This document shows, piece by piece, positions 16,586-35,232 of a stretch of 64,000 nt of DNA (positions within the stretch are counted from its first letter, which is position 1; every line of letters begins with the position of its first letter). This DNA comes from Chitinophaga pinensis. Lineage in GTDB: Bacteria; Bacteroidota; Bacteroidia; 2-12-FULL-35-15. The notes under the pieces were generated by a model. It saw only the letters and a program-made list of their open reading frames with translations, was not told the origin of the DNA and ran no database searches. The position numbers and the translations under genes are program-made. The DNA is taken from the NCBI GenBank assembly GCA_945885475.1, contig CAMCYR010000009.1, positions 16,062 to 80,061 on the forward strand. The letters are read 5' to 3'.

Positions 16586-19500
16586 ATGATAAAAATTAAA
16601 AAATATACTCTGAGTGTTTTGCTAATTATAATTTTAGCAACTAGTTACTCGCAGAGTTTCAATTTTAAAAATTACAATACAAAGTCTGGTCTGATAGGAA
16701 CAAATGTAAACGGAATCTACCAAGATAGCAAAGGTTATATATGGTTCGCCGTTCAAGGAGGACTAAGCCGCTTCGATGGAAGCCAGTTTCGTAACTTCAC
16801 AAAGGAAAACGGATTAATCGGAAATGATGTTACTAGCATAGTTGGTGATAAAAGAGGGAATATTTGGATTGGAACAACAGAAGGTATTTCAAAATATGAT
16901 GGTGTTTCATTTAAAAATTATTCTACAAAAAATGGCTTAGTAGATAATTTCATCCGGAATGTCTTCATCGACAATAATGATCAACTGTGGGTGGCCACAG
17001 ACAATGGAGGTGTTTCAAAACTAAACAAGGAAACTTTTGAAAACTTTACAATAGCTACAGGCCTTTTGACAAATACTGTTTTTGCTATAACGCAGGATAA
17101 AAAAGGTAATTATTGGTTTGCAACAAATAGTGGGATATGCAAATACAACGGAAATGAAATCATCAACTTCCTCAATCAAAAGAACATTTCAGGAAAAGAA
17201 TTTTTTTCAATACTTATCGATTCAGAAGGGAGCATATTCTTTGCAGGTGAAATAGGAGATGGTTTTATAAAATATTCGAATGGGAAATTTGAAAAAAAAT
17301 CATTCCCTGAATATTTACCTAAAAATAGTCGAATCTTCAGCATGATGGAAGATAAACATGGAAGTATCTGGTTTTCCTCTGATAATGATGGAATTATAAA
17401 ATATGATAAAAAAGATTTTTACACTTACAACGAAAAAAACGGACTTTCTTCCAATCAAGTCTATGCGATAAAAGACGACTACGAAGGCAACATTTGGATT
17501 GGGACAACCAATGGAGGTGCAGATAAGTTAAATAACGAATCGTTTGCCGCTTTCACTGAAAAAGATGGACTATCTGCTAATAAAATAGCTAGCGTTTATA
17601 AAAACAAGGATGCTCTTTTTATTGGAACACAAGGCACAGGACTAAATATTTTTACAAAGGGCTTTTATAATTTCAAACAAGAAATAAAAGAATTAAAAAA
17701 TGAAAAAATATTTTCAATTGCCGAAAATAAGAAAAACGAAATATGGATTGGTACGGAAAAATCCGGGATTTATGTATTGGAAAAGAAAGAAAATAATTAT
17801 TCTATAAAAAAACATATACCAATACTTCTTAATAAATCATTAGGGCTCGTTGATAAAATAATTTTCGATAAAAATGGTAATACTTGGATTTCTACCTATG
17901 GCAATGGTGCATTTTTAATTACTATTTCAGGAGAAATTAAAAACTATTCTACAGAAACAGATTTCCCTTCTAATAATTTATTAACGATACATGAGGATAA
18001 AAAGGGAAATATTTGGTTCGGTTCAATTGATGTTGGAGCTATAAAATATGATGGAAAGAAGTTCATTATCATCAATGAGAAATTGGGCTTATCAAACAAT
18101 GCTGTATGGTCAATCACCGAAGACGAAAATGACAATATATTTTTAGGAACAGGAGAGGGCGGTATTAATTGTGTAAATGGAAAAAACATTACAAAAATTG
18201 ACCGATCTGATGGACTTTGCTCAAACTTTATAGCGACATTGAATTGGGATAGTTTCGAAAAGGTAATTTGGGTTGGAACGAACAATGGAATCAACAAATT
18301 AAAACTTGGTTCAAATTTAAAACCTCTTTCGATACAGTATTATTCTGAAGAAGAAGGATTTAAAGGAACGGAAGTAACATCCTGTTCCCAAGATAAAGAT
18401 GGACTAGTTTGGTTTGCTACGATAAATGGAGTTTACCGCTATGATAGAAAATTTGATCTGCCAAATAAGTCAGCTCCAAAACTTGTTCTGACAGAAATAT
18501 TACTAGACTATAAGAATGTTGATTGGAAGAATTACTGTGACTCTGTTGATATAAGAACTAATATTCCAAAATCGCTTGTACTTGCCTATAATAAAAAACA
18601 CTTAACATTTAATTTCAGAGCCTTAACGACAGACAATGTTAAATACACATTTATTTTACTTGGGCAAGATTCAGAATGGTCACCTCTGAGTTCATTATCT
18701 GAAGCAAATTTCTCAAACATTATCCCGGGAAGATCCTACCAGTTCAAGTTGAGAGCAGTTAATTCAAATGGTATTTGGAGTGATGAAATTGTATCATTTG
18801 AATTTAAAATAAATTCACCTTGGTGGCAAACGTGGTGGTTCATTTCAATAAGCATTCTGCTTGGAATGTCAAGTATATATATTTTCGTAAAACTTCGAAC
18901 AAACAAACTAGCAAAGGAAAAAAAGGTGCTAGAAAAAAATGTTGCTGAAAGAACCTTTGAATTATCGGTAGCATTAAAAGAAATCAATGATAGCATTAAT
19001 TACGCTAAAATAATTCAACACTCCATACTTCCACTATCTGATGAAATCCATTTGGATTTACCTCAATCGTTTGTTTACTATGAACCTAAAAATGTAGTGA
19101 GTGGCGACTTTTACTGGTTTCATAAAAAAAATAAAAAGCTATACTTTGCAGTAGCAGATTGTACGGGACATGGTGTACCAGGAGCATTTATGAGTATGAT
19201 TGGTAGTTCATTATTAAACGAAATATTTAATGAAAATAACAATCCAGATGCCGCTGAGATTCTTAATTTATTGCATTCCAGAGTAAGAAAGGTATTAAAA
19301 CAAGATCGGTACGATGTAAAATCACAAGATGGGATGGATATTTCACTAGTTATTATTGATAATGAGGAAATGAAATTGAATTATGCAGGAGCCAAAAGAC
19401 CTCTTTATTTATTCAGAAAAGAAGATTATGGATATCAATTTATTGAAGCTAAAGCTGATAAGCAATCGATAGGTGGACATCAAAATGAAAATGATTTCAA

Positions 19501-19747
19501 ATTCGCGAACCATTTTTTTTCTCTCCATAAAGGAGATAGTCTATACATGTTCACAGATGGCTATGTTGATCAATTTGGGGGAGGAAATGAAAAAAAATTC
19601 TCTACTAAAAGGTTGAAAGAAACTCTAGAAAGCATGCAGCAATTGGAAATGGATAAACAATCTTCGGAATTATCATCAGTCATCAGTGATTGGAAAGGAA
19701 CCAATGAACAAGTAGATGACATATTAATCATAGGAATTAAAATATAA
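16586..19747 (+). CDS. Sensor protein: two-component-regulator beta-propeller repeats + Y_Y_Y domain + TM helix + PP2C/SpoIIE-type serine phosphatase
   Basis: 1053 aa; >12 'GLxxNxVxxIxxDxxGxxWxGT' propeller repeats; single TM 'WWFISISILLGMSSIYIFV'; C-terminal 'SGDFYWF...FAVADCTGHGVPGAFMSMIG...DGYVDQFGG' PP2C phosphatase motifs. Confidence 0.85.
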   Translation: MIKIKKYTLSVLLIIILATSYSQSFNFKNYNTKSGLIGTNVNGIYQDSKGYIWFAVQGGLSRFDGSQFRNFTKENGLIGNDVTSIVGDKRGNIWIGTTEGISKYDGVSFKNYSTKNGLVDNFIRNVFIDNNDQLWVATDNGGVSKLNKETFENFTIATGLLTNTVFAITQDKKGNYWFATNSGICKYNGNEIINFLNQKNISGKEFFSILIDSEGSIFFAGEIGDGFIKYSNGKFEKKSFPEYLPKNSRIFSMMEDKHGSIWFSSDNDGIIKYDKKDFYTYNEKNGLSSNQVYAIKDDYEGNIWIGTTNGGADKLNNESFAAFTEKDGLSANKIASVYKNKDALFIGTQGTGLNIFTKGFYNFKQEIKELKNEKIFSIAENKKNEIWIGTEKSGIYVLEKKENNYSIKKHIPILLNKSLGLVDKIIFDKNGNTWISTYGNGAFLITISGEIKNYSTETDFPSNNLLTIHEDKKGNIWFGSIDVGAIKYDGKKFIIINEKLGLSNNAVWSITEDENDNIFLGTGEGGINCVNGKNITKIDRSDGLCSNFIATLNWDSFEKVIWVGTNNGINKLKLGSNLKPLSIQYYSEEEGFKGTEVTSCSQDKDGLVWFATINGVYRYDRKFDLPNKSAPKLVLTEILLDYKNVDWKNYCDSVDIRTNIPKSLVLAYNKKHLTFNFRALTTDNVKYTFILLGQDSEWSPLSSLSEANFSNIIPGRSYQFKLRAVNSNGIWSDEIVSFEFKINSPWWQTWWFISISILLGMSSIYIFVKLRTNKLAKEKKVLEKNVAERTFELSVALKEINDSINYAKIIQHSILPLSDEIHLDLPQSFVYYEPKNVVSGDFYWFHKKNKKLYFAVADCTGHGVPGAFMSMIGSSLLNEIFNENNNPDAAEILNLLHSRVRKVLKQDRYDVKSQDGMDISLVIIDNEEMKLNYAGAKRPLYLFRKEDYGYQFIEAKADKQSIGGHQNENDFKFANHFFSLHKGDSLYMFTDGYVDQFGGGNEKKFSTKRLKETLESMQQLEMDKQSSELSSVISDWKGTNEQVDDILIIGIKI

Positions 19748-19801
19748 TTAAACCCATCACTTTACTAAACATTAAATAAAACTTTTTAATTATTTCATAT
19801 T

Positions 19802-22800
19802 ATGAAACTAAAATTACTTACTATTTTTTACGTCTGTTCTTTTTTAGCAGTAAACGCTAAAAATTTTGATGAGAAGGCTACTATATTAAATTTAAATACT
19901 TCTTCTAATGAGGTTATTTATGGACTGAAAATTTCTCCACTAGCCTGCACTATTACTGGTTCCATTTCATCCCAATCGAATGTAACGTGTTTTGGAGGGA
20001 ATAATGGCACTGCTGAAATTAATGCATCCGGAGGAACGGGTGCACTAACCTATGACTGGACACCGGGAAACCCAATAGGAGATGGCACACCAAGTGTATC
20101 AGGATTAACAGCTGGCACATGGACTTGCACGGTTACTGATATAAACAGTTGCAGCTTTTCACAAACCGTTAATATCAACGAACCAACTCCTATAAATCTT
20201 GCTTTTTTTTCACAAACAGATGTTTCCTGTTATGGAGGAAGTAATGGTGAATTATCTATTTATGCTATTGGGGGAACTGGAACACTGTTGTATGACTGGA
20301 CTCCTGGTTCCTTTCCAGGTGATGGAACACCTAATGTTACTGGTTTATATGCTGGTACATGGATTTGTAATATTACAGACGACAATAACTGTACTAAAGC
20401 AGAAGTGTTTATTATTAATGAACCTCCACCAATAGTTATTAATACAACTTTACAAACAAACGTTTCTTGTAATGCCGGAAATAATGGCGCAACTTCCGTT
20501 TCTGTAAGTGGAGGATCAACTGGAGGATATGTTTACAACTGGACGCCTGGAAATCCAAGCGGCGATGGCACAGAAAGCATTACCGATCTAACGGCTAATA
20601 CATGGACATGCACAGTAACAGATGGAATCGGATGCTTGGGGTCACAAACAATTATTATCACCGAACCTTCAATACTTCTTGTTTCTGCTTCATCGCAAAC
20701 AGCTGTTTCTTGCAACTCTGGAAACGATGGATCAGCTACTGTAACAAGTTCGGGAGGAACGGGATCTATTGCTTTCGATTGGAGTCCAGGAAGTCCTTTC
20801 GGTGATGGATCAGCAAATGTTAGCAACTTAAGTGCTGGCACATATACCTGCACCGTTTCTGATGCAAACGCTTGCGCTGCTTCCGAAACATTTACTATAA
20901 ATGAACCATCAGCTATTAGTGCATCCCAATCTATTTCTATTTGTGCCGGACAATCGATTACAGTTGGCAGTAGCACCTATTTATCTTCAGGAATATACAC
21001 GGATATATTAATGGCTTCTAATGGCTGCGATAGTTCAGTTATTACGAATTTAACTATTCTTCCAGTTGTTACGAGTGCTGGTTTTTCATCTAGTATTTCC
21101 GGAATGACTGTCGCTTTTTCTAACACTGGAATTGATGCAACCAATTACTACTGGGACTTTGGAGACGGCTCTTCATCCACAGCAGCTAATCCAACTCACA
21201 CCTATAATTACGGAGGTAATTTCAATGTCTGCCTTATCGCTTCGAATGGTTGCTCTTCCGAAACCGTTTGCCAACTCATTACTATTGTCTGCATTGCTCC
21301 CCTTGCAAGCTTCAGCTCAAACATAAATGGCTTGTCATTAAATTTCATAAGCACTAGTTCAAATGCTGCAAATTTTAATTGGAATTTCGGAGATGGTAAT
21401 TTTTCAACGAATGAAAATCCTAATTATGTTTATTATGCAGCAGGAACCTATACTGTTTGCCTAAACGTGAGCAATGCCTGCGGAACCTATTCTACCTGCG
21501 ATACTGTTACTGTAAATTGTGTATCACCCATCGCAAACTACAGTTCATCCGTAAGCGGTTTAACAGCAACGTTTATTAACACCTCTTCCAATGCAGCAAG
21601 TGTTTCTTGGAACTTTGGAGATAGTAACATATCTAGTTTAAACAACCCTGTACATGTCTATTCAAATCCGGGAACATATACCGTTACATTAATTGTAAGT
21701 AATGGTTGCGGAACAGATTCTATTGCACAGACGGTGATTGTGAACTGCGCATTGCCGGTTGCAAATTTTATATCTTCTCAAACTGGCTTAACAGCAGAAT
21801 TTGTGTCTACATCTACTAATGCTTCAACATTTCAATGGGATTTTGGTGATGGCGCAACCAGTATTTCTCCCTTTCCTCCGCCTCACCTCTACCCGTCAAC
21901 AGCGGCATATACGGCCTGCTTAATTGCTAGCAATGGTTGTGGAGCAGATACGCTTTGTAATGCGCTAAATATATGTACACCGCCTGTTGCATCCTTCAAC
22001 TCTAACTATACAGCACTTACGGGTATTTTTACAAATACAACGCCTTCGTCTTCTGGAAATTCATATTTATGGACATTTGGTGATGGGACTGCAACAAATT
22101 TTGTCAACCCAACACATCAATTTGGTCTATCAGGCAACAACACTATTTGTTTGACCGCAACAAACAGCTGTGGTACAAACACATTTTGTTTGACAGATAC
22201 ACTATTCTGTGCTCCATTTATGGATCAGGGAATATGTATGGTAACGGTAGATACCGCCAACAATCACAACATTGTATATTGGGACAAAACAGGATTGACG
22301 GGCGTTGATAGTTTCAGAATTTACAGAGAAGTGGCAACGAGTGTATGGTCGCATATTGCCTCAGTTGCTTTCGCAGATTTAAGTGAATATCACGACAACG
22401 TAGCAGATGCTGCTGTAAGTCAATGGGCATATAAAATTGCTATTTTAGATACATGTGGAAATGAATTACCACGGAGTTTATATCATTATACAATACATCT
22501 TCAAGTGTTAGGTGGTGGTAATTTACAATGGAGTCTTTATTCCATAGAGGCCACAGCAAATCCAGTTAATTTTTATCAGGTGTATCGGGACGACTTCGGT
22601 ACGGGTAATTTTTTACCGATTAGTTTAACCATACCTGGTACATTTACTTCCTATACCGATATTAATTTTGCATCGTTTCCACTTGCAGATTATATGGTGC
22701 AGGTTGATTGGAATATTTCTTGTACGCCCACGCGCATAGCAATCAATACCTCACACTCCAATATTCGTCACCAATCTATCTCTGTCATAGGAATTTCTGA

Positions 22801-23044
22801 GAATGATCGCGCTTCAGCAGTTACTATTTTTCCTAATCCGGCTAACGACAATGTGATGATTGAAGTTGAAAACCTTATTGGTCAAGAGCTAAAAATAATG
22901 AATGCATTGGGAGAACTTATTTTTAATACGAAGATAAAAGATAAGAAAACGGCAGTTGATATTTCTTCTTTTTCTAATGGAATTTATTCAATTCAAATTG
23001 AAACAGAAAATGGAAGAATTGTAAAAAAATTGGTGAAAAACTAA
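19802..23044 (+). CDS. T9SS cargo protein: 4 SprB repeats + Cys module + ~6 PKD domains + type-A CTD
   Basis: 1080 aa; SprB repeats 'CxGGxNGxA...GGTGxxxYDWTPGxPxGDGT...LxAGTxTCTVTDxNxC'; PKD 'WDFGDG...NPTHTY...'; C-terminal 'IFPNPANDNVMIEVENL...GIYSIQIETENG' Por_Secre_tail. Confidence 0.85.
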   Translation: MKLKLLTIFYVCSFLAVNAKNFDEKATILNLNTSSNEVIYGLKISPLACTITGSISSQSNVTCFGGNNGTAEINASGGTGALTYDWTPGNPIGDGTPSVSGLTAGTWTCTVTDINSCSFSQTVNINEPTPINLAFFSQTDVSCYGGSNGELSIYAIGGTGTLLYDWTPGSFPGDGTPNVTGLYAGTWICNITDDNNCTKAEVFIINEPPPIVINTTLQTNVSCNAGNNGATSVSVSGGSTGGYVYNWTPGNPSGDGTESITDLTANTWTCTVTDGIGCLGSQTIIITEPSILLVSASSQTAVSCNSGNDGSATVTSSGGTGSIAFDWSPGSPFGDGSANVSNLSAGTYTCTVSDANACAASETFTINEPSAISASQSISICAGQSITVGSSTYLSSGIYTDILMASNGCDSSVITNLTILPVVTSAGFSSSISGMTVAFSNTGIDATNYYWDFGDGSSSTAANPTHTYNYGGNFNVCLIASNGCSSETVCQLITIVCIAPLASFSSNINGLSLNFISTSSNAANFNWNFGDGNFSTNENPNYVYYAAGTYTVCLNVSNACGTYSTCDTVTVNCVSPIANYSSSVSGLTATFINTSSNAASVSWNFGDSNISSLNNPVHVYSNPGTYTVTLIVSNGCGTDSIAQTVIVNCALPVANFISSQTGLTAEFVSTSTNASTFQWDFGDGATSISPFPPPHLYPSTAAYTACLIASNGCGADTLCNALNICTPPVASFNSNYTALTGIFTNTTPSSSGNSYLWTFGDGTATNFVNPTHQFGLSGNNTICLTATNSCGTNTFCLTDTLFCAPFMDQGICMVTVDTANNHNIVYWDKTGLTGVDSFRIYREVATSVWSHIASVAFADLSEYHDNVADAAVSQWAYKIAILDTCGNELPRSLYHYTIHLQVLGGGNLQWSLYSIEATANPVNFYQVYRDDFGTGNFLPISLTIPGTFTSYTDINFASFPLADYMVQVDWNISCTPTRIAINTSHSNIRHQSISVIGISENDRASAVTIFPNPANDNVMIEVENLIGQELKIMNALGELIFNTKIKDKKTAVDISSFSNGIYSIQIETENGRIVKKLVKN

Positions 23045-23073
23045 AAAGCTTATAAATTAAAAACGACAACTAT

Positions 23074-26000
23074 TTGAACAAAATGCAACTGAAACTGAAA
23101 TTATTTTTTGCTTTACTTACTGTTGTGACTTTTTCTGCAACTGCACAAAATTTTGCTTGGGCAAAAGCGATGGTTGGAACTGGGACAACGGATGAAGGTT
23201 CACAATCGGTTGCCATTGACGCTGCAGGCAATGTATACACTACAGGACAATTCTTCGGAACAGTTGATTTTGATCCGGGCGCAAGTACCTTTAATTTGAC
23301 TTCTACTGGTTTGGAAGATATTTTCATCTCGAAGCTGGATGCTTCCGGGAATTTTTTATGGGCTAAAAAAATTGGGGGAACTGGTACTGATGTTGGCTGG
23401 AAAATTGCTCTTGATGCAAGCTCAAATGTAGTTGTATCTGGTTATTTCAGATACACAGCTGATTTTGACCCGGGTTCGGCTGTTTATACTTTATCACAAG
23501 TTGGAACAGCTGCTTATGCTGATATTTTTGTGCTTAAACTTGATACAAATGGGAATTTTGTTTGGGTAAAACAATTTGGGGCATCATCCGTTGATGATGA
23601 TGCATATGGTTTATATATCGACAATTTAAGTAATATATATATAACAGGTTACTTCTGGGGAACAATAGATTTTGACCCAGGAGCGGGAATAGCCAATTTA
23701 ACACCTACTGGAAATGCTGATATCTATATTTTAAAATTGGATGCTTCGGGAAGTTTTGTGTGGGCAAAAAAAATGGGCGGAACCCTATTAGATGAAGGAA
23801 AAGGCATTTATGTGGATGGTTTAGGCAATGTATTCACCGTTGGTGTTTTTAGAGGAACAGTAGATTTTGATCCGGGTTCAGGTACTGCAAATCTAATATC
23901 GGCAGGCAGTGATGATATTTTTATTTCGAAGCTCGACGCTTCAGGAAATTTTAACTGGGCAAAATCAATCGGTTCTACCGGAATTGATTTCGCGTCTTCT
24001 ATTTCTGTGGATGCTTCGGGAAATATATTTATATCCGGTTATTTTAACGGTACAGTAGATTTTGATCCCGGCTCAGGAATTTCAAATTTGACATCCGCAG
24101 GTATTGAAGATATTTTTGTTTGTAAACTTGATGCCACCGGAAATTATAGTTGGGCAAAACGAATTGGAAGTACTTCAACTGATAAAGCAGTCGCTTCAAT
24201 TGTTGACGCATCCGGAAACATTCAAATAACTGGTTCTTATTCAGGAACCGTAGATTTCGATCCTGGCGCAACAACAACAAATCTCAGCTCTGCAGGTCTA
24301 ACAGATATTTTCGTATGCACGCTTGATGCTTCCGGTAATTTCCTTAGAGCAAAAACAATAGGTGGTACAGGAAATGACGCTGGAAATTCAATTGCAGTGT
24401 CTAGTTCAGGAAGTAGTTATATTTCTGGAGATTACAGCGGAACAGTAGATTTTGATCCAAGTGCAAGTACCTTTAACTTAAGTTCAGGTGGTGGTAAGGA
24501 TATTTTTGTAATGAAATTTTTAGCACCCTGTAACATTACAAACTCGAGTTCCCAAACGAATCTAACTTGTAATGGAATATGTACTGGATCAGCTACAATG
24601 ATTCCTAGTGGCGGAACATCTCCTTACACCTACTCATGGGCACCTTCAGGAGGTTCAGCAGCAACGGCAAATTCATTATGTGCAGGAAGTTATACCTGTA
24701 CCGTTACCGACAATGTCGGCTGTACGTCAACCAGAACGTATATCCTTACACAGCCGACTGCAATAAGTGTTGGTGCGTCTTTGCAATCAAACGTAATTTG
24801 TAATGGGGGAAACAATGGTGCAGCGAGTGTAAATGCAAGCGGAGGAACGGGAACATTAACTTATAATTGGACACCTGGAAATCCAACAGGCGATGGAACA
24901 GCCAGTGTTTCTGGTTTAACTGCCGGAACGTGGACGTGCACAGTAACGGATGCTAATGGCTGCAGTGGCTCTCGCACATTTACAATCACGCAACCACCAG
25001 CAATTGCTGTAAGCATTGCTTCACAAACAAATACAACATGTAATGGTGGTACGAATGGGGCTGCCAGTGTTACAGCTTCTGGGGGTGTAGGAATTTTGGC
25101 ATACGACTGGATGCCAGGAAACCCAACGGGAGATGGCACCAATAGCATTTCAGGGATATTCGCCAATACGTGGACTTGCTATGTAAGCGATGAAAATGGT
25201 TGTACTGCTTCACAAGCAATCACAATTACTCAGCCACCTGCAATTAGCGTTCTTACTTCATCTATCTCTCCCCCATCTTGCAATGGTGGAAATAATGGAT
25301 CCGCTTCCGTATCTGCATCTGGAGGAACAGGAAGTTTATCATACAACTGGACACCAGGAAACCCAACGGGTGATGGAACAACCATTGTTTCGGGTCTAAC
25401 TGCAGGATCTTGGACCTGCACTGCAACAGACGGAAGTGGGTGTACAGGAGCAAGAACAATAAATCTAACACAACCAACTGCAATTTCAGTTGCTGCTGTT
25501 TCCCAGACAAATGTTTCTTGTAACGGAGGTAGCAATGGATCAGCAAGTGCTTCGGCTTCGGGAGGTACAGGTACTTTATCTTTCAACTGGACGCCCTATG
25601 GAGGAACAGCTTCAACGGCAACCGCATTAACTGCCGGGACCTATACGTGTACCGTTACCGATGCAAATCTGTGTTCAGCATCCAGAACATTTATAATCAC
25701 GCAACCTACCGCGATCGTTGTGAATGCCGTTTCACAAACAAACGTTTCCTGCAATGCCGGAAATAATGGCGCTGCAACGATATCCGCTTCTGGAGGAACA
25801 GGTGCATATACATACAATTGGACGCCATTCGGAGGAACGGGAATAACGGCTTCAGGTTTAATTGCAGGAACATATACCTGCACCGTTACCGATGCAAATG
25901 CATGTTCGGCGAGTAGAATATTTACGATCACGCAACCAACAGCGATTGTTGTAAATGCAGTTTCTCAAACAAACGTTTCCTGCAATGCAGGAAATAATGG

Positions 26001-29000
26001 CGCTGCAACGATAGCTGCCTCAGGCGGAACAGGGGCATTCACCTATAATTGGACGCCAGGAAATCCTACAGGCGATGGAACTGTTGGTGTTTCTGGACTA
26101 ACTGCAGGATCGTGGACCTGCACGGTTACGGATGCAAATGCATGTTCTGCTTCACGCATTATTACAATCACTCAACCTACTCCTATTTCTGTTGGAATTT
26201 CTTCCCAAACAAATGTTTCTTGTAACGGAGGAAGTAATGGCGCTGCTTCCATATTCGCTTCAGGTGGTACTGGCGCACTCACTTATAACTGGACTCCAGG
26301 AAATCCAACGGGAGATGGCACAGCAAGTGTTTCGGGATTAACTGTAGGATCGTGGACCTGCACTGTAACGGATGCAAATGGATGTAATTCCACACAAATA
26401 TTCACGATTACTCAACCAACAGTAATTAATATTTCTGCAACAGCACAAAGCAATGTATCTTGTAACGGCGGAAACAATGGAACGATTACAGTAAACGCAA
26501 CTGGCGGAACAGGTGCTTTCACTTATAACTGGACGCCATCCGGAGGAACGGGAATTACAGCTACTGGTTTAATTGCAGGAACATATACCTGCACCGTTAC
26601 CGATGCAAATCTTTGTACAGCCTCAAGATCATTTACGATCACGCAGCCAACAGCTATTGTTGTAAATGCAGTTTCACAAACAAACGTTTCCTGCAATGCA
26701 GGGAATAATGGCGCTGCAACGATATCTGCTTCTGGCGGAACAGGTGCATTCACCTATAATTGGACGCCAGGAAATCCTTCAGGCGATGGAACAGTCAGTG
26801 TTTCGGGATTAACTGCCGGTTCATGGACCTGCACGGTTACCGATGCAAATGCATGTTCTGCTTCACGCATTATTACAATCACAGAGCCTACTGCTATTTC
26901 AGTAGTAGCTGTTTCCCAAACAAATGTTTCTTGTAACGGAGGAAGTAACGGTGCTGCAGCTGTTTCTGCTTCAGGCGGAACAGGTGCATATACTTACAAT
27001 TGGACGCCAGGAAATCCTACAGGAGACGGAACAGCAAGTGTTACTGGACTAAGTGCTGGATCGTGGACCTGCACGGTTACCGATGCAAATGGTTGTGCAG
27101 CATCCAGAACATTCACAATCACGCAACCATCAGTTATTGTTGTGAATGCCGTTTCACAAACAAACGTTTCCTGTAATGCAGGAAGCAATGGCGCTGCAAC
27201 GATATCTGCTTCAGGTGGAACAGGGGCATTCACATACAATTGGACGCCATTCGGAGGAACGGGAATTACGGCTTCAGGTTTAATTGCAGGAACGTATACT
27301 TGTACCGTTACCGATGCAAATGCATGTTCGGCGAGTAGAACATTTACGATCACACAACCAACTGCTATTGTTGTGAATACAGTTTCACAAACAAACGTTT
27401 CCTGCAATGCAGGAAGTAATGGCGCTGCAACGATATCTGCCTCGGGCGGAACAGGGGCATTCACCTATAATTGGACGCCAGGAAATCCTACAGGCGATGG
27501 AACTGTTAGTGTTTCGGGACTTACTGCAGGTTCATGGACTTGCACGGTGACAGATGCAAATGGATGTTCTGCTTCACGCATTATTTCAATCACAGAACCT
27601 ACTCCTATTGCTGTTGTTGCTTTTTCCCAAACAAATGTTTCTTGTAATGCAGGAAATAATGGCGCTGCAACGATATCAGCTTCTGGAGGAACAGGCGCAC
27701 TCACTTATAATTGGACTCCAGGAAATCCAACGGGAGATGGAACAGCAAGTGTTACTGGATTAACTGCCGGCTCATGGACCTGCACGGTTACTGATGCAAA
27801 TGCATGTTCTGCTTCACGCATTATTACAATCACAGAACCTACTGCTATCTCCGTTGCTGCTGTTTCCCAAACAAATGTTTCGTGTAACGGAGGAAGCAAT
27901 GGATCAGCTACTGCATCTGCTGCAGGAGGAACGGGTACTTTATCTTTCAACTGGACGCCATACGGGGGATCTGCTTCATCGGCAACCGGATTAACTGCAG
28001 GAACTTACACCTGCACCGTTACCGATGCAAATGCTTGTTTGGCAAGTAGAACATTTACGATCACAGAACCAACTGCAATTTCAGTTCTGTCTGCTTCCCA
28101 AACAAATGTTTCCTGCAATTCCGGGAACAATGCAGCGGCAACGATAGCTGCTTCAGGCGGAACAGGTGCTTACACATACAACTGGACGCCATTCGGAGGA
28201 ACGGGAATTTCAGCTTCAGGTTTAATTGCAGGAACATACACCTGCACTGTTACTGATGTAAATCTTTGTTCATCATCACTTACATTTTCTATAACAGAGC
28301 CAGCAGCAATTTCGGTAACGATAGTTTCTCAAACAAACGTTTCCTGCAATGCAGGAAATAATGGCGCTGCAACGATATCTGCTGTTGGAGGAACAGGTGC
28401 ATTTACTTACAATTGGACACCAGGAAATCCTACCGGAGATGGAACAGCAAGTGTTTCTGAACTAAGCGCAGGGGCTTTTACCTGCACTGTTACAGATGAA
28501 AATGGGTGTTCGGCATTCCGAATTATAACTATCACAGAACCTACTCCTATTTCTGTTGGAGTTTCTTCTCAAACAAATGTTTCTTGTAACGGAGGAAGTA
28601 ATGGTTCAGCTTCGGTATTCGCTTCAGGTGGTACTGGTAGTATTTCCTTCAACTGGCTTCCCTTTGGAGGCAATTCAGCATTCACAACGGGATTATCCGC
28701 AGGAACTTATTCTTGTAATATTTCGGATGCAAATGGCTGTTCAGCAATTCAACTGTTTACTATTTTAGAACCAACAGTAATTATAGTTGCTCCCGTTTCC
28801 CAAACCAATATCTCTTGTAATGGAGGCAATAACGGAGCTGCAGCGGTTTCTGCTTCGGGAGGAACAGGTGTTTTATTATTTAATTGGGCTCCTTCTGGCG
28901 GTTCTGCCCCAGCAATAACAGGGCTTACGGCCGACACGTATACCTGTACCGTTTCTGATGAGAATGGATGCAGCGCAACACAAACTTTTATCATTACTGA

Positions 29001-30405
29001 ACCTTCGCAAATAATAGTTTCTTCTTCTTCACAAAACAATGTATCGTGTAATGGAGGAAGCAATGGTGATGCGAGTGCAAGTGCAACAGGTGGCACAGGA
29101 TTGCTCAGCTACAGCTGGACTCCCTTTGGAGGTTCAACATCATCCGCAACAGGATTAAGTGCTGGAATTTATACTGTTACAGCCACGGATGAAAATGGTT
29201 GTAGCTCTTCACTCCAATTCGACATTTCAGAACCTACCACAATTGTTGTGAACACTGTTTCGCAAACAAATAATTTGTGTAATGGTGGAAATAATGGTAA
29301 TGCTGCTATTTCGGTTATTGGAGGAATTGCAGGATACACTTACGATTGGACGCCCGGAAATCCGACAGGTGATGCAAGCAATTCTATCAGTAATTTAACA
29401 GCAGGAATCTGGAATTGCTCTGTAACAGATGCGAATGGATGTGTTACCAACCATACCGTTTCAATTACAGAACCTGCAGCGATAATTATAAATCAATCTA
29501 ACATTATTTGTGCGGGTGCTTCTATTACTGTAGGAGTAAATACATATTCCAGCTCAGGAGTTTACACCGATGTATTAATTGCAGCGAATGGTTGCGATAG
29601 TACTGTAATTACTAATTTAACAGTGAATCCCGCACTATCAGCATCACAAACCATTGTTCGTTGCGCAGGTGAATCAATCACAGTTGGAGTAAATACGTAT
29701 TCAACGTCAGGAGTTTATACCGATGTATTAAATGCAGTGAATGGTTGCGATAGTACTGTAACAACGAATTTAACTGTGAATTCTCCTATTTCAGGATCTC
29801 AAACAATTATTCGCTGTGCAGGTGAATCCATTACGGTTGGATTAAATACCTATTCCATCTCAGGAGTTTACACCGATGTATTAACTGCAGCGAATGGGTG
29901 CGATAGTACCGTAACAACTAATTTAACGGTGAAACCTTCCATAAACATTGCTACTTCTCTTTCAGGAACAACAATCACTGCAATAGCAAATCCAGCGACT
30001 TATCAATGGATAGATTGCAATAATAGTAATGTGATAATTGCTGGTGCAACTAATCAATCTTTTGTTTCAACAATGAATGGTAGCTATGCGGTTATTGTTA
30101 CACAAAATGGATGCAGTGATACGAGTGCATGCGTGAACATTACAAATACAGGAATAAATGGATCAATTCAGAACAGTGAATTATTAATTTATCCAAATCC
30201 AACGAACGAAAAAGTAATTATCGAACTTGGAAATTTGATCGGACAACATTTAAAAATAATGAATGCTATTGGTCAGATTGTTTATGCTGCTGAAATAAAA
30301 AATACAAAAATAGAAATCGATCTTTCTGATTTTGCGAACGGAATATATACAATTCAGGTGCAAACAGCAAAGGGTATCGTTCTGAAAAAATTGGTAAAGA
30401 ATTAA
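23074..30405 (+). CDS. Giant T9SS cargo protein: ~9 SBBP beta-propeller repeats + ~21 SprB repeats + 3 Cys modules + type-A CTD
   Basis: 2443 aa; N-terminal repeats 'GxDxxxxIAxDxxGNxYxTGxFxGTxDFDPG...DIFIxKLDASGNFxWAK'; SprB repeat array; C-terminal 'LIYPNPTNEKVIIELGNL...GIYTIQVQTAKG' CTD. Confidence 0.85.
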   Translation: MNKMQLKLKLFFALLTVVTFSATAQNFAWAKAMVGTGTTDEGSQSVAIDAAGNVYTTGQFFGTVDFDPGASTFNLTSTGLEDIFISKLDASGNFLWAKKIGGTGTDVGWKIALDASSNVVVSGYFRYTADFDPGSAVYTLSQVGTAAYADIFVLKLDTNGNFVWVKQFGASSVDDDAYGLYIDNLSNIYITGYFWGTIDFDPGAGIANLTPTGNADIYILKLDASGSFVWAKKMGGTLLDEGKGIYVDGLGNVFTVGVFRGTVDFDPGSGTANLISAGSDDIFISKLDASGNFNWAKSIGSTGIDFASSISVDASGNIFISGYFNGTVDFDPGSGISNLTSAGIEDIFVCKLDATGNYSWAKRIGSTSTDKAVASIVDASGNIQITGSYSGTVDFDPGATTTNLSSAGLTDIFVCTLDASGNFLRAKTIGGTGNDAGNSIAVSSSGSSYISGDYSGTVDFDPSASTFNLSSGGGKDIFVMKFLAPCNITNSSSQTNLTCNGICTGSATMIPSGGTSPYTYSWAPSGGSAATANSLCAGSYTCTVTDNVGCTSTRTYILTQPTAISVGASLQSNVICNGGNNGAASVNASGGTGTLTYNWTPGNPTGDGTASVSGLTAGTWTCTVTDANGCSGSRTFTITQPPAIAVSIASQTNTTCNGGTNGAASVTASGGVGILAYDWMPGNPTGDGTNSISGIFANTWTCYVSDENGCTASQAITITQPPAISVLTSSISPPSCNGGNNGSASVSASGGTGSLSYNWTPGNPTGDGTTIVSGLTAGSWTCTATDGSGCTGARTINLTQPTAISVAAVSQTNVSCNGGSNGSASASASGGTGTLSFNWTPYGGTASTATALTAGTYTCTVTDANLCSASRTFIITQPTAIVVNAVSQTNVSCNAGNNGAATISASGGTGAYTYNWTPFGGTGITASGLIAGTYTCTVTDANACSASRIFTITQPTAIVVNAVSQTNVSCNAGNNGAATIAASGGTGAFTYNWTPGNPTGDGTVGVSGLTAGSWTCTVTDANACSASRIITITQPTPISVGISSQTNVSCNGGSNGAASIFASGGTGALTYNWTPGNPTGDGTASVSGLTVGSWTCTVTDANGCNSTQIFTITQPTVINISATAQSNVSCNGGNNGTITVNATGGTGAFTYNWTPSGGTGITATGLIAGTYTCTVTDANLCTASRSFTITQPTAIVVNAVSQTNVSCNAGNNGAATISASGGTGAFTYNWTPGNPSGDGTVSVSGLTAGSWTCTVTDANACSASRIITITEPTAISVVAVSQTNVSCNGGSNGAAAVSASGGTGAYTYNWTPGNPTGDGTASVTGLSAGSWTCTVTDANGCAASRTFTITQPSVIVVNAVSQTNVSCNAGSNGAATISASGGTGAFTYNWTPFGGTGITASGLIAGTYTCTVTDANACSASRTFTITQPTAIVVNTVSQTNVSCNAGSNGAATISASGGTGAFTYNWTPGNPTGDGTVSVSGLTAGSWTCTVTDANGCSASRIISITEPTPIAVVAFSQTNVSCNAGNNGAATISASGGTGALTYNWTPGNPTGDGTASVTGLTAGSWTCTVTDANACSASRIITITEPTAISVAAVSQTNVSCNGGSNGSATASAAGGTGTLSFNWTPYGGSASSATGLTAGTYTCTVTDANACLASRTFTITEPTAISVLSASQTNVSCNSGNNAAATIAASGGTGAYTYNWTPFGGTGISASGLIAGTYTCTVTDVNLCSSSLTFSITEPAAISVTIVSQTNVSCNAGNNGAATISAVGGTGAFTYNWTPGNPTGDGTASVSELSAGAFTCTVTDENGCSAFRIITITEPTPISVGVSSQTNVSCNGGSNGSASVFASGGTGSISFNWLPFGGNSAFTTGLSAGTYSCNISDANGCSAIQLFTILEPTVIIVAPVSQTNISCNGGNNGAAAVSASGGTGVLLFNWAPSGGSAPAITGLTADTYTCTVSDENGCSATQTFIITEPSQIIVSSSSQNNVSCNGGSNGDASASATGGTGLLSYSWTPFGGSTSSATGLSAGIYTVTATDENGCSSSLQFDISEPTTIVVNTVSQTNNLCNGGNNGNAAISVIGGIAGYTYDWTPGNPTGDASNSISNLTAGIWNCSVTDANGCVTNHTVSITEPAAIIINQSNIICAGASITVGVNTYSSSGVYTDVLIAANGCDSTVITNLTVNPALSASQTIVRCAGESITVGVNTYSTSGVYTDVLNAVNGCDSTVTTNLTVNSPISGSQTIIRCAGESITVGLNTYSISGVYTDVLTAANGCDSTVTTNLTVKPSINIATSLSGTTITAIANPATYQWIDCNNSNVIIAGATNQSFVSTMNGSYAVIVTQNGCSDTSACVNITNTGINGSIQNSELLIYPNPTNEKVIIELGNLIGQHLKIMNAIGQIVYAAEIKNTKIEIDLSDFANGIYTIQVQTAKGIVLKKLVKN
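24527..29490 (+). repeat. In-frame tandem array of ~21 x ~240-bp SprB-repeat coding units, many near-identical at the nucleotide level, with higher-order ~1.4-kb periodicity
   Basis: Direct reading: e.g. units beginning ~25696 and ~27120 align with roughly 90 % or more identity by eye (not computed) across >450 nt; recurring 4-unit pattern (TPYGG / TPFGG / GNPTGDGTV / GNPTGDGTAS variants). Confidence 0.85.
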
Positions 30406-30463
30406 TTTATAATTATAGAAACTAATTGATTACTAATTAAAGTTGTAAAAAGAAAATAGTTAA

Positions 30464-32926
30464 TTGATCGAAAAAAAAATGAAAAAGATAATTGTCGAAA
30501 AAAAATCAACTCTAGGAATATTCGTGTTACTCCTATTTATTTTACTAAACAATTTGGTTATAAATGCAGCAACTACGTTTCAGAAAACATTTGGCGGCAC
30601 ATCTGATGAATACGGCTATGCGACCGAACAATTAAGTGATGGAGGATATATCATGTGTGGAAGAACAATCAGTTTCGGAGTTGGTGGATTCGACAATTAT
30701 TTAATTCGATTAAATGCCAATGGAGATACCTTATGGACAAAAACATATGGCAATACAGGTTACGATGAAGCACAATCTATCAAACAAACGAGTGACGGCG
30801 GGTTTATTATGGTTGGGCAAACGGCAACTGTAGATTATGCTGGCGATGTGTACCTCGTAAAAACGGATGCGAATGGTGTACTGGTTTGGTCGACTGCATT
30901 TGGAACGGCAACTAAATTTGATTTCGGTTATTCTGTTCGACAAACGTCTGACGGTGGATATATTATTGCTGGACTAACCAATAGCACAGGTGCTGGACTT
31001 AGGGATGTTCTACTAATAAAAACAAATTCGACAGGTGTTTTACAATGGTCAAAAACCTATGGCGGCGCGGCTGACGACGAAGCCAGGTCTGTTGAAGAAA
31101 CAGCAGATGGAGGATTTATAGTATCCGGATTTACGCAAAGCTATGGTTCTGGCTACCAAATGTATCTTATCAAAACAAATTCAACTGGAAATGTTACATG
31201 GTCGAAAACCTTTGGTGGTGGCGGCTTGGAACTAGGCTATTCAGTAAAACAAACTTCTGATGGCGGGTATGTTCTATTAGGATATTCCGACTCGTATGGC
31301 TCAGGACTTTTAGATGTTCTGCTTGTAAAACTCACATCAACAGGAAGTATATCCTGGAGCAAAACCTACGGAGGCACTGCCGACGATTATGGACTGTGTA
31401 TATATATTACTATCGATGGTGGATATATTATTTCTGGTAGAACATCAAGTTATGGTGCCGGTGGAGGTGATTATTATTTAATAAAAACAGATGTGAATGG
31501 CGTTCACCAATGGTCGAAAGCATATGGTGGAACAGCTGTTGATCAAGCTGGAAATGTTCGACAAACGGCGGATGGAGGCTATATACTAACAGGCTACACA
31601 ATGAGTTTTGGTGCAGGGATAAGAGAGGCTTATCTTGTAAAAACAGATGCTACTGGTGCATCAGGATGTAATGAATTTACGGCTACGACTCAAACAACTT
31701 CAGCCACTGTAGCAAACAGTACAGGTGCCACAGAAGGTCTTGGTCTAAGTGCAGTAAGCCCAGTTACGGCAACAAGAAGAGTAAAGCCTGTTGTCACTAC
31801 TTCATGTTCTTCAAGTGCTTGTACTTTAACAATTGCCTCCTTTGCACAAACAAATGTTACTTGCAATGGAAGTACGAATGGAACTTCTTCCATTTCAAGT
31901 ACAGGTGGCGTTGGTACCTTAACTTACAACTGGACACCTGGAAATCCAATAGGAGATGGGACAGCAAGTGTTACAAATTTAAGCGCTGGAACTTATAGTT
32001 GCACAGTTACGGATGCAAATGGTTGCACGGCATTGCAAACAGTTACAATTACTCAACCGAATGTACTTGTTTCAACTATAACTTCACAAACAAACGTGAG
32101 TTGTTTTGCAGGAACAAATGGAGCTGCAAGTATTTTAGTAAGTGGTGGAACAACTGCATATAGTTACAACTGGACGCCCGGAAATCCAACTGGAGACGGA
32201 ACAACAAGTGTTACAAATTTAAGCGCTGGAAGTTATAGTTGCACCATCACAGATGCAAACGGATGCGCGGCATCGCAATCAGTTACAATCACGCAAGCTG
32301 CTGCCATAAATAACGCACAAAATATTTCTATTTGTGCCGGACAAACTCTTGTTATTGGAACAAATAGCTATTCAAGTTCAGGAATTTATACGGATGTGTT
32401 AGCTGCAATAAATGGATGCGACAGCACTGTAACAACTACTCTCACTGTAAATCCTTTAATAGATTTAACAACTACTACATCTGGAAATTCAATCACTGCA
32501 AATACAAGTCCAGCGAACTATCAATGGATTGATTGTAATAATGGAAACAGTTTACTTGTTGGAGCAACATCGCAAGTATATACTTCAGCAGCGAATGGAA
32601 ATTATGCTGTAATTATTAGTCAAAATGGATGCAGTGATACGAGTGCTTGTGTAACTATTACAACTACCGGTATTGTATTAAAACCAAACAATGAATACTT
32701 ACAGATTTTTCCTAATCCAACAACGTCAACAATAACGTTAAAAGGACTTTCAGCTGATAGTGATATACATATCATGAATGCATTGGGACAAACACTATTT
32801 TCTAAAACGATCAATCAAAAGGATGTAGAAAAAATCATTGATCTTTCTGATTTTAAAAACGGGATGTATTATATACAAATAGAGAATAAAGAGACGACCG
32901 TATCAAGAAAAGTAATAAAGGAATAA
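30464..32926 (+). CDS. T9SS cargo protein: ~8 beta-propeller-type ~50-aa repeats + S/T linker + 2 SprB repeats + two Cys modules + type-A CTD
   Basis: 820 aa; repeats 'YGGxxxDxAxSVxQTSDGGYIxxGxTxSxGxGxxDxLLIKTNSTGxxxWSKTYGG'; C-terminal 'QIFPNPTTSTITLKGL...GMYYIQIENKET' CTD. Confidence 0.85.
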   Translation: MIEKKMKKIIVEKKSTLGIFVLLLFILLNNLVINAATTFQKTFGGTSDEYGYATEQLSDGGYIMCGRTISFGVGGFDNYLIRLNANGDTLWTKTYGNTGYDEAQSIKQTSDGGFIMVGQTATVDYAGDVYLVKTDANGVLVWSTAFGTATKFDFGYSVRQTSDGGYIIAGLTNSTGAGLRDVLLIKTNSTGVLQWSKTYGGAADDEARSVEETADGGFIVSGFTQSYGSGYQMYLIKTNSTGNVTWSKTFGGGGLELGYSVKQTSDGGYVLLGYSDSYGSGLLDVLLVKLTSTGSISWSKTYGGTADDYGLCIYITIDGGYIISGRTSSYGAGGGDYYLIKTDVNGVHQWSKAYGGTAVDQAGNVRQTADGGYILTGYTMSFGAGIREAYLVKTDATGASGCNEFTATTQTTSATVANSTGATEGLGLSAVSPVTATRRVKPVVTTSCSSSACTLTIASFAQTNVTCNGSTNGTSSISSTGGVGTLTYNWTPGNPIGDGTASVTNLSAGTYSCTVTDANGCTALQTVTITQPNVLVSTITSQTNVSCFAGTNGAASILVSGGTTAYSYNWTPGNPTGDGTTSVTNLSAGSYSCTITDANGCAASQSVTITQAAAINNAQNISICAGQTLVIGTNSYSSSGIYTDVLAAINGCDSTVTTTLTVNPLIDLTTTTSGNSITANTSPANYQWIDCNNGNSLLVGATSQVYTSAANGNYAVIISQNGCSDTSACVTITTTGIVLKPNNEYLQIFPNPTTSTITLKGLSADSDIHIMNALGQTLFSKTINQKDVEKIIDLSDFKNGMYYIQIENKETTVSRKVIKE

Positions 32927-32944
32927 ATTTGCTTAACACTAATT

Positions 32945-32994
32945 CTATGATAAACATAGCTTTCAATTATAGTTGAACCTTATGTTTATCATAG
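32945..32994. terminator. Long-loop hairpin (perfect 14-bp stem ctatgataaacata / tatgtttatcatag, 22-nt loop) between convergent genes
   Basis: Inverted repeat read directly at 32945-32958 and 32981-32994 between cargo gene (+) and purL (-) 3' ends. Confidence 0.45.
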
Positions 32995-33003
32995 ATTAAA
33001 GAA

Positions 33004-35232
33004 TTATTTTAACAATTCACCCAATGCGCTGTCGAAGATCTTTTTAGCAGCGGCAACAGTACCAAATGATTCGTCATCAACAATCATTTCGTTTCCTTTC
33101 ACATCACCAAGATATTCGAATTCAGCTCGGGAAGCCATCATCAGGTCGATAAATTTATCTTCATCCGATTTTTTAACCGAAACAATAACGCGGCTCTGAG
33201 CTTCCCCAAATAAAAATGCATCTTTACGGATTTCGGAATCAAAACTAATATCGAAGCCCAAACCATTTGTCATAGCACTTTCTAGTAAGGTAATAAATAA
33301 TCCACCATCGGCACAATCGTGAGCAGATTGAACAACACGTTCTTTAATGATTGTCTTTACAGCCTTTTGAACTTCGTATTCTTCATCTAAATTAAAGAAC
33401 GGAGCAGGGGTATTTTTTACATTGTGAAAAGAATATAAATATTCAGAAGAATTAATACAATTTTTAGAACTACCGATTAGGTAAATAGAATCACCCTCAT
33501 TTTTAAAATTCAAGGTCATACGGTTCGCCTTGTCTTTCATCACTCCCAACATTCCGATTGTAGGTGTAGGAAAAACAGGACCTTCATAAGAAGATTGATT
33601 GTAAAAACTTACATTTCCGCCGGTAACAGGGGTTTCAAACTTAATACACGCGCTTCCCATTCCTTTAATAACATTCACAAATTGCCAATATACTTCAGGA
33701 TTATAAGGATTTCCAAAATTAAGACAGTTGGTAATTGCTGAAGGCTCAGCACCACTGCAAACGATATTACGTGCCGCTTCGGAAACAGCAATTGCACATC
33801 CAACTTCAGGATCGGCATTCACATAGCGTGCATTACAATCTACTTTCAGAGCAATCGCCTTTTTTGTACCTTTAATATTCACGATTGCAGCGTCAGAAGG
33901 CGCATTTGTACTCATGTTTGCCGTACCAACCATTGAATCGTATTGATTATAGACCCATTGTTTGGATGCGATATTCGGATGGGAGATCAAAAAATCTGCG
34001 ACAGCTTTCAGATCTTTCGGAACCTCAACTGAATCGATATTAAACTTTTGAGCTTCTTTAAAATAAGCTGGCTCTTTGTAATCTCTGTGATATACCGGTG
34101 CACCGCCACCTAAAACAAGATCAAAAGCAGGAACATCAGCAACCAATTCATCACCAACATAAAACTTAATACGTTTTGTGTCTGTAACTTGTCCGATCAA
34201 CGCACAATTTAAATCCCATTTAGCAAATACTTTTTCAACATCTTTCTCTCTTCCTTTTTTCACAACGATCAACATGCGCTCCTGAGATTCGGAAAGAAGA
34301 ATTTCGAATGGTTGCATATTCGCCTGACGAGTAGGCACTCTGTCCAACCAAATATCCATTCCATGTTCGCCCTTTGCAGACATTTCAGAGGTTGAGCAAG
34401 TGATACCTGCCGCACCCATATCCTGCATACCAATAACAGCACCCGTTTTTATTACTTCTAATGTTGCTTCCAAAAGTAATTTTTCTTGAAAAGGATCCCC
34501 AACCTGAACAGCTGGCAGATCTTTTGCTGAATCTTCAGTAATATCCGCAGAGGCGAATGTTGCTCCGTGAATACCATCTTTTCCGGTTGCTGATCCAACA
34601 ATAAAGACAGGATTACCAACACCGTAAGAAGTCGCAGAAACCGTTTCACCGGCTTTTACGATACCTGCACTCATCGCATTCACCAGTGGATTCACATTGT
34701 AGCAGTCATCAAAAAACACTTCACCGCCAACACAAGGAATACCAAAAGCATTACCATAATCTCCAATTCCTTTTACAACTCCCTTTACAAGCCATTTTGT
34801 TTTTTCCAATTTAATATCACCAAATCGCAGTGAATTCAGCTGTGCAATCGGGCGAGCACCCATTGTAAAAATATCACGATTGATCCCTCCTACGCCTGTT
34901 GCTGCTCCTTGGTATGGTTCCAAAGCACTCGGATGATTGTGAGATTCAATTTTGAAAGCGCAACCTAAACCATCACCTATATCAACCAATCCCGCATTTT
35001 CTTCACCCGCTTCAGCAAGAATATAAGGTCCTTTTTTAGGAAGTTTTTTCAACCAAACAATTGAATTCTTATAAGAACAGTGCTCACTCCACATGACTGA
35101 AAAGATGCTTAGTTCGGTAAAATTTGGCACACGCCCAAGTATCGCTATGATCTTTTCATATTCATCTTGTAATAAGCCTAATTTCTTCGCTGTTTCAACG
35201 GTCGTTAATTGATCTTGTGCAGTTGTTGACAT
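33004..35232 (-). CDS. purL: Phosphoribosylformylglycinamidine synthase subunit PurL
   Basis: 742 aa; '[14 protein letters not shown]...' and AIR-synthase-related domains typical of PurL. Confidence 0.95.

Follow-up and report, generated by a model that had tools for sequence, protein, structure and literature searches.

A 21-unit SprB-repeat array as the probable, block-grown stalk of a large T9SS-exported surface protein in an uncultured freshwater Bacteroidota

The window, by which we mean the whole stretch of 64,000 nucleotides that was analysed, carries a gene dominated by a tandem array of 21 SprB-repeat units. We consider it likely that this array is the stalk, or extender, of a large surface protein exported by the T9SS in an uncultured freshwater Bacteroidota, and that it is an old array, grown by blocks of several units, which is still recombining. 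Judged from its domain content, the protein is a SprB-repeat T9SS type-A cargo, ordinary for a giant adhesin-like gene.

The open reading frame extends from 23,074 to 30,405 on the forward strand, on which all the features described below lie unless otherwise stated, and comprises 2443 codons counted from its mechanical start, a TTG at 23,074. The ATG at 23,083 is probably the true start, since all related gene calls begin there; the gene would then span 23,083–30,405 and encode 2440 amino acids (Pfam SprB in 21 copies, SBBP and Por_Secre_tail; NCBIfam TIGR04183). The product matches a database protein, P0246, at 100%. From the N- to the C-terminus it consists of a signal peptide, a seven-bladed SBBP propeller, the 21 units, three 51-aa repeats and a type-A T9SS sorting domain. 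The putative Sec signal peptide, MQLKLKLFFALLTVVTFSATAQ (23,083–23,148), was recognized by eye from the translation and is kept in the relatives. The propeller follows at 23,149–24,516 (PF06739); an AlphaFold2 model of the N-terminal 457 residues shows seven blades with a pLDDT of 95.7 and a pTM of 0.94, and this propeller is the probable distal head of the protein. Its closest solved fold is the propeller of CylK (TM 0.71–0.74, 25% identity), an enzyme. The SprB array is followed, ahead of the sorting domain, by three Cys-containing repeats of 51 aa (29,533–29,933; 153-nt period, 84% matches), for which no match to any Pfam family was found. The sorting domain (30,187–30,396) occupies the extreme C-terminus and was detected with PF18962 (64.4 bits, cut-off 27) and TIGR04183 (44.2 bits, cut-off 23).

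The array gene is flanked by purL and by two other T9SS cargo genes, both with type-A sorting domains according to Pfam and NCBIfam: the upstream one (19,802–23,044) has four SprB repeats and five PKD domains, and the downstream one (30,464–32,926) has a propeller and two SprB units. One more type-A cargo gene is present upstream, besides this flanking pair. As to T9SS genes, the 64-kb window contains, besides the array gene, a PorP/SprF family gene and three further type-A cargos; core genes such as sprA, porK, porL, porM, porN, porU and porV are outside the window. The PorP/SprF family gene (13,598–14,575, opposite strand) is the nearest of its kind and lies 8.5 kb upstream. A scan for sigma-70 promoters and terminators over 19,400–33,200 returned numbers at or below the shuffle expectation, and the "terminator" hairpins called inside the array correspond to palindromic S-C-N-A-G-N codons.

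To delimit the units, the translated protein was cut at a conserved T-[QE]-P linker. This parsing yielded 21 in-frame units, numbered 0 to 20, of 77 or 80 aa (231 or 240 nt), which occupy 24,517–29,466 inside the 2443-codon frame and so bear out the array that the preliminary description had placed at 24,527–29,490. The frame is unbroken across the whole array. PF13573 (SprB repeat) matched 21 stretches of the protein with 546.6 bits against a gathering cut-off of 28, and one unit taken alone scored 42.9 bits; TRF reported periods of 240 and 471 nt across 25,654–28,604, with 68–70% matches. The same description had called the units near-identical, with about 90% identity also between neighbours, and this wording is overstated, above all for adjacent units, because the measured identities are mostly well below 90%. 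Pairwise nucleotide identity has a mean of 70% and a median of 69%; between neighbouring units it ranges from 59 to 83% (mean 71%) and in none reaches 90%. The description holds only for a core of four pairs, namely 5–11 (91%) and 6–9, 6–12 and 9–12 (91–92%). At the amino-acid level adjacent units are 40–85% identical, which is high for neighbouring domains and in that respect counts against the stalk explanation. All 21 units differ from one another. The longest exact run shared inside the array, at 26,023 and 27,445, measures 63 nt, far more than the 10–13 nt obtained in 20 shuffled sequences.

The fold of the units was predicted for units 5–7 with AlphaFold2, using as input alignment 19 three-unit windows. 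The model has a pLDDT of 90.6 and consists of three all-beta domains, and a Foldseek search against the PDB matched it to tandem Ig-domain proteins, SiiE among them; the top TM values were obtained with fragments of the GhpA stem (PDB 9flw and 9flx; TMq 0.49, 20–22% identity). A PDB sequence search with three units gave weak Ig matches only. Each SprB unit is thus modelled as an Ig-like beta-sandwich.

T9SS type-A sorting domains are cleaved off, and many cargos that bear them are attached via the new C-terminus; in some Bacteroidota, type-A cargo is released and not anchored, a circumstance that counts against a stalk. Drawing on this biology and on the extender logic of giant adhesins (PMC7493085), we infer a stalk role with surface anchoring. 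The protein would be secreted by the T9SS, its C-terminus would then be the end kept at the outer membrane, and the units, arranged like a string of beads, would place the propeller tens of nanometres away from the cell, so that unit number would set the reach of the stalk. Beta-sandwich tandem repeats do act as extenders, and assemblies often under-report their number (PMC7493085).

The units could instead be themselves adhesive or ligand-binding, making the protein a multivalent SprB-like adhesin in which copy number tunes avidity and not reach. The repeat family is named for the motile gliding adhesin SprB, whose units are thought to bind ligands; moreover, every unit is under strong purifying selection (dN/dS ~0.1), and Cys, Trp and Gly positions are conserved across the units. 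These conserved positions, however, resemble a structural core, we know of no binding site in SprB repeats, and the protein has a separate, well-folded N-terminal propeller, which is the commoner type of binding head. We regard a direct adhesive role of the units as rather unlikely; it is compatible with the stalk explanation.

The array has a clear higher-order structure. Besides the peaks at 231, 240 and 471 nt, autocorrelation revealed peaks at 711, 1422 and 2364 nt, with an identity of 0.50–0.54 at these three lags, which correspond to three, six and ten units. Among units 4–17, mean identity was 0.79 at lags of three and six units versus 0.75 at a lag of one (unit-order permutation, p ~0.01), and clustering grouped the units as {5,11}, {6,9,12,(13)}, {4,14} and {7,17}. 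The central higher-order repeat (25,699–27,831) is made of three 711-nt blocks (units 5–7, 8–10 and 11–13) and holds every pair of units with at least 90% identity. Within it, units 5–6 (25,699–26,169) are 91.5% identical to units 11–12 (27,121–27,591) at a lag of 1422 nt; this was the example chosen in the preliminary description, and ungapped comparison of 25,696–26,170 with the sequence 1422 nt further on gives 91.6% identity, as it had stated. Units 4–7, in turn, are similar to units 14–17 at a lag of ten units (2364 nt).

The same order can be followed in the motifs of the units, coded as Y or F/S for short units with TPYGG or TP[FS]GG, and as V or A for long units with GDGTV or GDGTAS. 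From unit 4 onwards, the string reads Y-F-V-A / S-V-A / F-V-A / Y-F-A-(7-like), a pattern that we read as a three-unit block repeated three times (units 5–13) and nested in an older four-unit duplication (units 4–7 and 14–17). A periodicity of about 1.4 kb, claimed earlier, is therefore present as a 1422-nt period, but the basic block measures 711 nt and 1422 is its double; likewise, the recurring four-unit pattern occurs, but only twice (units 4–7 and 14–17), the main block having three units. The proposal that blocks were duplicated, as opposed to slippage of single units, agrees with the best matches lying three, six or ten units away and not one. The array grew by multi-unit block duplication, first of the four-unit block and then of the three-unit block to three copies.

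To compare the number of repeats among relatives, as had been suggested, we combined a GTDB genome scan, a whole-protein search and a cluster look-up, all the sequences recovered being metagenome assemblies. The genome scan gave two close relatives, L001 (CANIFU010000005.1; propeller 91% identical) and L002, and the whole-protein search with the cluster look-up gave 15 related gene models. Queries with the propeller alone, in a protein search and a metagenome contig scan, found no orthologues; the matches were relatives within the very large SBBP family, at about 50% identity. Arrays of 21, 17 and 15 units were observed, which can be arranged in four types. Type A, with units 0–20, comprises the window protein (P0246), P0245, P0249, P0121 and P0242, as well as the N-truncated P0243 and P0250. 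Type B, found in L136 (ERZ28612946; P0248) and L137 (P0247), also has 21 units (2437 aa), arranged as 0–9, 4′, 5′, 6′ and 13–20, units 10–12 (26,881–27,591 in the window) being swapped for a perfect or near-perfect copy of units 4–6: in L136 the two copies form a 704-nt perfect repeat at a lag of 1413 nt, and in L137, where unit 4 and unit 6 each share 99.6% identity with their copies, 688 nt match perfectly. Type C, found in L001 (P0123) and P0124, has 15 units (0–6 and 13–20; 1966 aa) and lacks the 1422 nt of units 7–12 (26,170–27,591); its left-to-right switch lies at a unit boundary, where 26,174–26,187 equals 27,596–27,609. Type D, represented by P0122 and by L138 (P0252, whose contig measures 609 kb), has 17 units (2126 aa), four fewer than the window, and the four units that precede unit 18 are only 77–87% identical to any window unit. 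Every junction between these alleles is at a unit boundary, in phase and in frame. In the downstream cargo gene the relatives have two, three or four SprB units, varying by single 80-aa units.

These data support the earlier suggestion that the array is prone to expand and contract by recombination, as the 21-, 17- and 15-unit alleles differ by whole in-phase multi-unit blocks; the array thus behaves as a higher-order repeat of variable copy number, with the reservation that the 15-unit allele may reflect assembly collapse. Types A, B and D reflect real block-wise conversion, duplication or deletion, because they differ in sequence content and each was recovered twice with differences. The route from type A to type B may have been a single gene conversion, or else an unequal crossover and then a deletion. 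Type C may have come about by a genuine deletion in type B, with the perfect copies as its end points; alternatively, a short-read assembly collapsed these copies into one. The comparison shows an array that is still changing, through homologous recombination or gene conversion that runs in register from one unit boundary to another, and this accounts for the 21-, 17- and 15-unit relatives and for the single lineage in which units 4–6 have a fresh perfect copy.

A further, tentative proposal, which we think unlikely, is that natural populations of freshwater Bacteroidota maintain, under selection, a standing polymorphism of stalk length: near-clonal cells would differ by whole blocks of three to six units here, and in the gene next door by one unit at a time, through in-register recombination that tunes reach or helps to evade phage or grazers recognising the surface protein, and the three-unit pattern of diverged neighbours would be kept as a limit on misfolding and runaway recombination.

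That the differences in unit number among the relatives are assembly artefacts is, in our judgement, quite unlikely. In its favour, L001 lacks exactly one 1413-nt period of L136 and is 100% identical to it in the remaining gene and in 2.9 kb upstream; the missing period is flanked by the 704-nt perfect repeat, and this is exactly an error that short-read assemblers can make. A collapse of the 15-unit allele over that repeat would also count against the stalk reading. However, types A, B and D differ in content as well as in count: a collapse is unable to put a perfect copy of units 4–6 in the place of units 10–12, or to yield the four diverged units of type D, and the types were recovered in pairs with sequence differences (L136/L137, P0122/P0252 and P0123/P0124).

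The age of the duplications was estimated from synonymous and nonsynonymous divergence (Nei–Gojobori, on a codon alignment of the units). The closest pairs of units have dS 0.23–0.32, dN 0.017–0.035 and dN/dS ~0.1, with dS 0.28 and dN 0.03 for the block of units 5–6 versus 11–12; the older pairs 4–14, 7–13 and 6–16 have dS 0.5–0.9, and over all pairs the median pS is 0.66, near saturation. Between orthologous units of the window and its relatives, dS is 0.15 (L136), 0.21 (L139) and 0.26 (L138), with dN/dS ~0.13–0.15. Since the paralogues are as diverged as this or more so, even the youngest duplications in the window do not postdate the deepest split among the relatives sampled. The low ratios show purifying selection on every copy since its duplication.

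L139, which has an identical 21-unit order and a mean orthologous identity of 93%, allowed us to ask whether paralogues are closer within than between genomes, as concerted evolution predicts. They are not in the window or in L139: the positional orthologue is the best cross-genome match in 19 of the 21 units, and the mean within-genome minus cross-genome paralogue identity is −0.002 for the window and −0.0003 for L139. One exception, apparently only local, is the second half of unit 11 in L139, which seems to have been converted by unit 8. These results show that the units behave as long-lived, individually constrained paralogues, with no array-wide homogenisation. The preliminary description had explained the similarity of the units by recent duplication or by ongoing concerted evolution that holds them homogeneous, and neither idea fits the window, because the divergence of its closest pairs is as old as the split of the relatives and its paralogues are equally alike across genomes. 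The 91–92% identity of units 5~11 and 6~9~12, the second copy of units 4–6 at 99.6–100% in L136 and L137, and the partial conversion in L139 speak for this explanation; set against them, the mean identity of 70%, the 59–83% between neighbours and the absence of exact runs longer than 63 nt make it very unlikely. After duplication, purifying selection acted on each copy, and the array was not homogenised. Higher-order tandem repeats can evolve by unequal crossing-over; the array resembles such repeats in its multi-unit periodicity of identity, in its in-phase gains and losses of blocks and in having its junctions where the unit is most conserved, and differs from them in the lack of homogenisation.

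A mis-assembly of the window array itself, through collapse, expansion or chimerism of its copies, is very improbable: repeat numbers of adhesin genes are frequently wrong in assemblies (PMC7493085) and related contigs are broken or frameshifted inside the repeats (L002 stops in unit 5, the contig of P0244 begins in unit 12 and P0251 has a frameshift in unit 2), but the best block in the window is 8% diverged, its 21 units are all distinct with the frame intact, and their order is repeated in P0245, P0249, P0243, P0250, P0121 and P0242, on other contigs and with differing sequences. The warning that such arrays may collapse in assembly is thus pertinent to the relatives, with their 704-nt perfect repeat, the twin shorter by 1413 nt and contigs ending inside the array; the window array lacks a substrate for collapse, because its longest exact repeat is 63 nt.

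Among known systems, the closest in composition are the SprB-repeat (PF13573) cargos, including SprB of Flavobacterium johnsoniae, which share with the window protein the repeat family, C-terminal sorting by the T9SS and a very long sequence dominated by repeats; the whole-protein search returned hundreds of SprB-repeat proteins of 2000–4200 aa with this architecture. The window protein has 2440 aa, an SBBP propeller and a type-A domain (TIGR04183/PF18962), whereas SprB has 6497 aa and a type-B domain. No match to the type-B C-terminal domain (PF13585/TIGR04131) was obtained in the window protein, and no sprF-like (PorP family) partner gene is adjacent to the array gene; for these two reasons we do not consider it an orthologue of SprB.

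The units gave their best structural match with GhpA, the grappling-hook protein of Aureispira (PDB 9flw and 9flx), likewise a T9SS substrate. [quoted passage not shown] The 5898-aa protein assembles into heptamers and carries a hook region at its N-terminus, and its gene is adjacent to PorP and PorE homologues (bioRxiv 10.1101/2024.01.29.577165). Tandem Ig-like repeats are predicted for the window array as well, a likeness of fold only. Unlike GhpA, the window protein begins with an SBBP propeller and not a hook, and the gene downstream encodes a cargo and not PorP or PorE; on these grounds membership in the GhpA grappling hooks was rejected.

The giant RTX/BIg adhesins (SiiE, MpIBP and LapA-like proteins) have tandem beta-sandwich extenders, as proposed here for the window array, which hold a terminal region that binds ligands at a distance from the cell; SiiE was among the fold matches. 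Their repeat number is variable among strains and often mis-assembled, and they rely on type I secretion, N-terminal retention and calcium-stiffened linkers (PMC7493085). The window protein differs in its use of the T9SS and in its reverse polarity. No RTX, HemolysinCabind (Pfam) or calcium-linker motifs were detected in it and its C-terminus is a T9SS domain, so that a type I-secreted RTX/BIg adhesin was also discarded. By analogy, the window array probably works like the stems of GhpA and of the RTX adhesins.

For annotators, these results indicate that the gene encodes a genuine 21-domain T9SS surface protein and is no assembly artefact, and that long reads are needed before its length in metagenome-assembled relatives (15, 17 or 21 units) is relied upon. 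The finding opens no new question, as SprB-repeat cargos of such length are common and giant adhesins are well known to vary in repeat number (PMC7493085). Biologically, it is a clean, small illustration of the evolution of an Ig-like extender array: ancient block duplications, prolonged purifying selection on every copy thereafter, and in-phase block conversion or deletion that still occurs occasionally, without concerted evolution.

The protein encoded by the T9SS cargo gene downstream of the main gene (30464–32926, plus strand) combines SprB units with a propeller and a type-A sorting domain, and counterparts of the gene were located in five related contigs (L001, 15938–18625; L136, 10387–13314; L137, 10387–12834; L138, 9427–11874; L139, 8681–11368). 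We observed that the number of SprB units in this gene differs among the relatives (2, 3 or 4), each unit being exactly 80 aa long, so that the protein has a length of 815, 895 or 975 aa. The additional units of L136 are near-identical tandem copies. Single units vary in this gene, whereas whole blocks vary in the main gene.

Within the main gene, the amino-acid identity of adjacent Ig-like units (24517–29466, plus strand) ranged from 40 to 85%, with a mean of 65%. Neighbouring domains in tandem-repeat proteins usually stay below an identity ceiling of roughly 40%, which is thought to curb misfolding, and the identity observed here is far over this value. Across 24000–30000, the GC content of the array was 0.42–0.46, in contrast to 0.31–0.41 (mostly 0.33–0.38) in the remaining window; this increase likely reflects the Gly/Ala/Thr/Ser-rich composition of the units and not a foreign origin. 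A 17-nt palindrome, TTCCTGCAATGCAGGAA, is present in units 6, 11, 12 and 16 (25977–25993, 27168–27184, 27399–27415 and 28341–28357, respectively), where it corresponds to the S-C-N-A-G-N codons, with TGT in place of TGC in the copy at 27168. These sites were called on the minus strand by the terminator scan, and the palindromes are probably a coding by-product.

The array is followed by three tandem Cys-containing repeats of 51 aa (29533–29933, plus strand; 153-nt period, 84% matches) with the consensus CAGxSITVGVNTYSxSGVYTDVLxAxNGCDSTVTTNLTV, for which no matching Pfam family was found. One copy of this repeat also precedes the sorting domain of the downstream cargo gene. At the other end, the SBBP propeller (23149–24516, plus strand) gave more than 5400 protein matches at E ≤ 1e-100, and most of the 120 matches listed are proteins of 560–830 aa composed of the propeller and a T9SS sorting domain, and nothing else. 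Since the nearest solved fold to this propeller is that of CylK, an enzyme, the head may have a catalytic role instead of an adhesive one.

T9SS-related genes are abundant around the main gene, including a PorP/SprF family gene (13598–14575, minus strand) and a type-A cargo gene encoding an N-acetylmuramoyl-L-alanine amidase with CUB and sorting domains (5707–8760, plus strand). Directly upstream of the three co-oriented T9SS cargo genes, there is a gene encoding a protein with Reg_prop propeller, Y_Y_Y and SpoIIE phosphatase domains (16586–19747, plus strand); this protein may regulate the T9SS cargo cluster.
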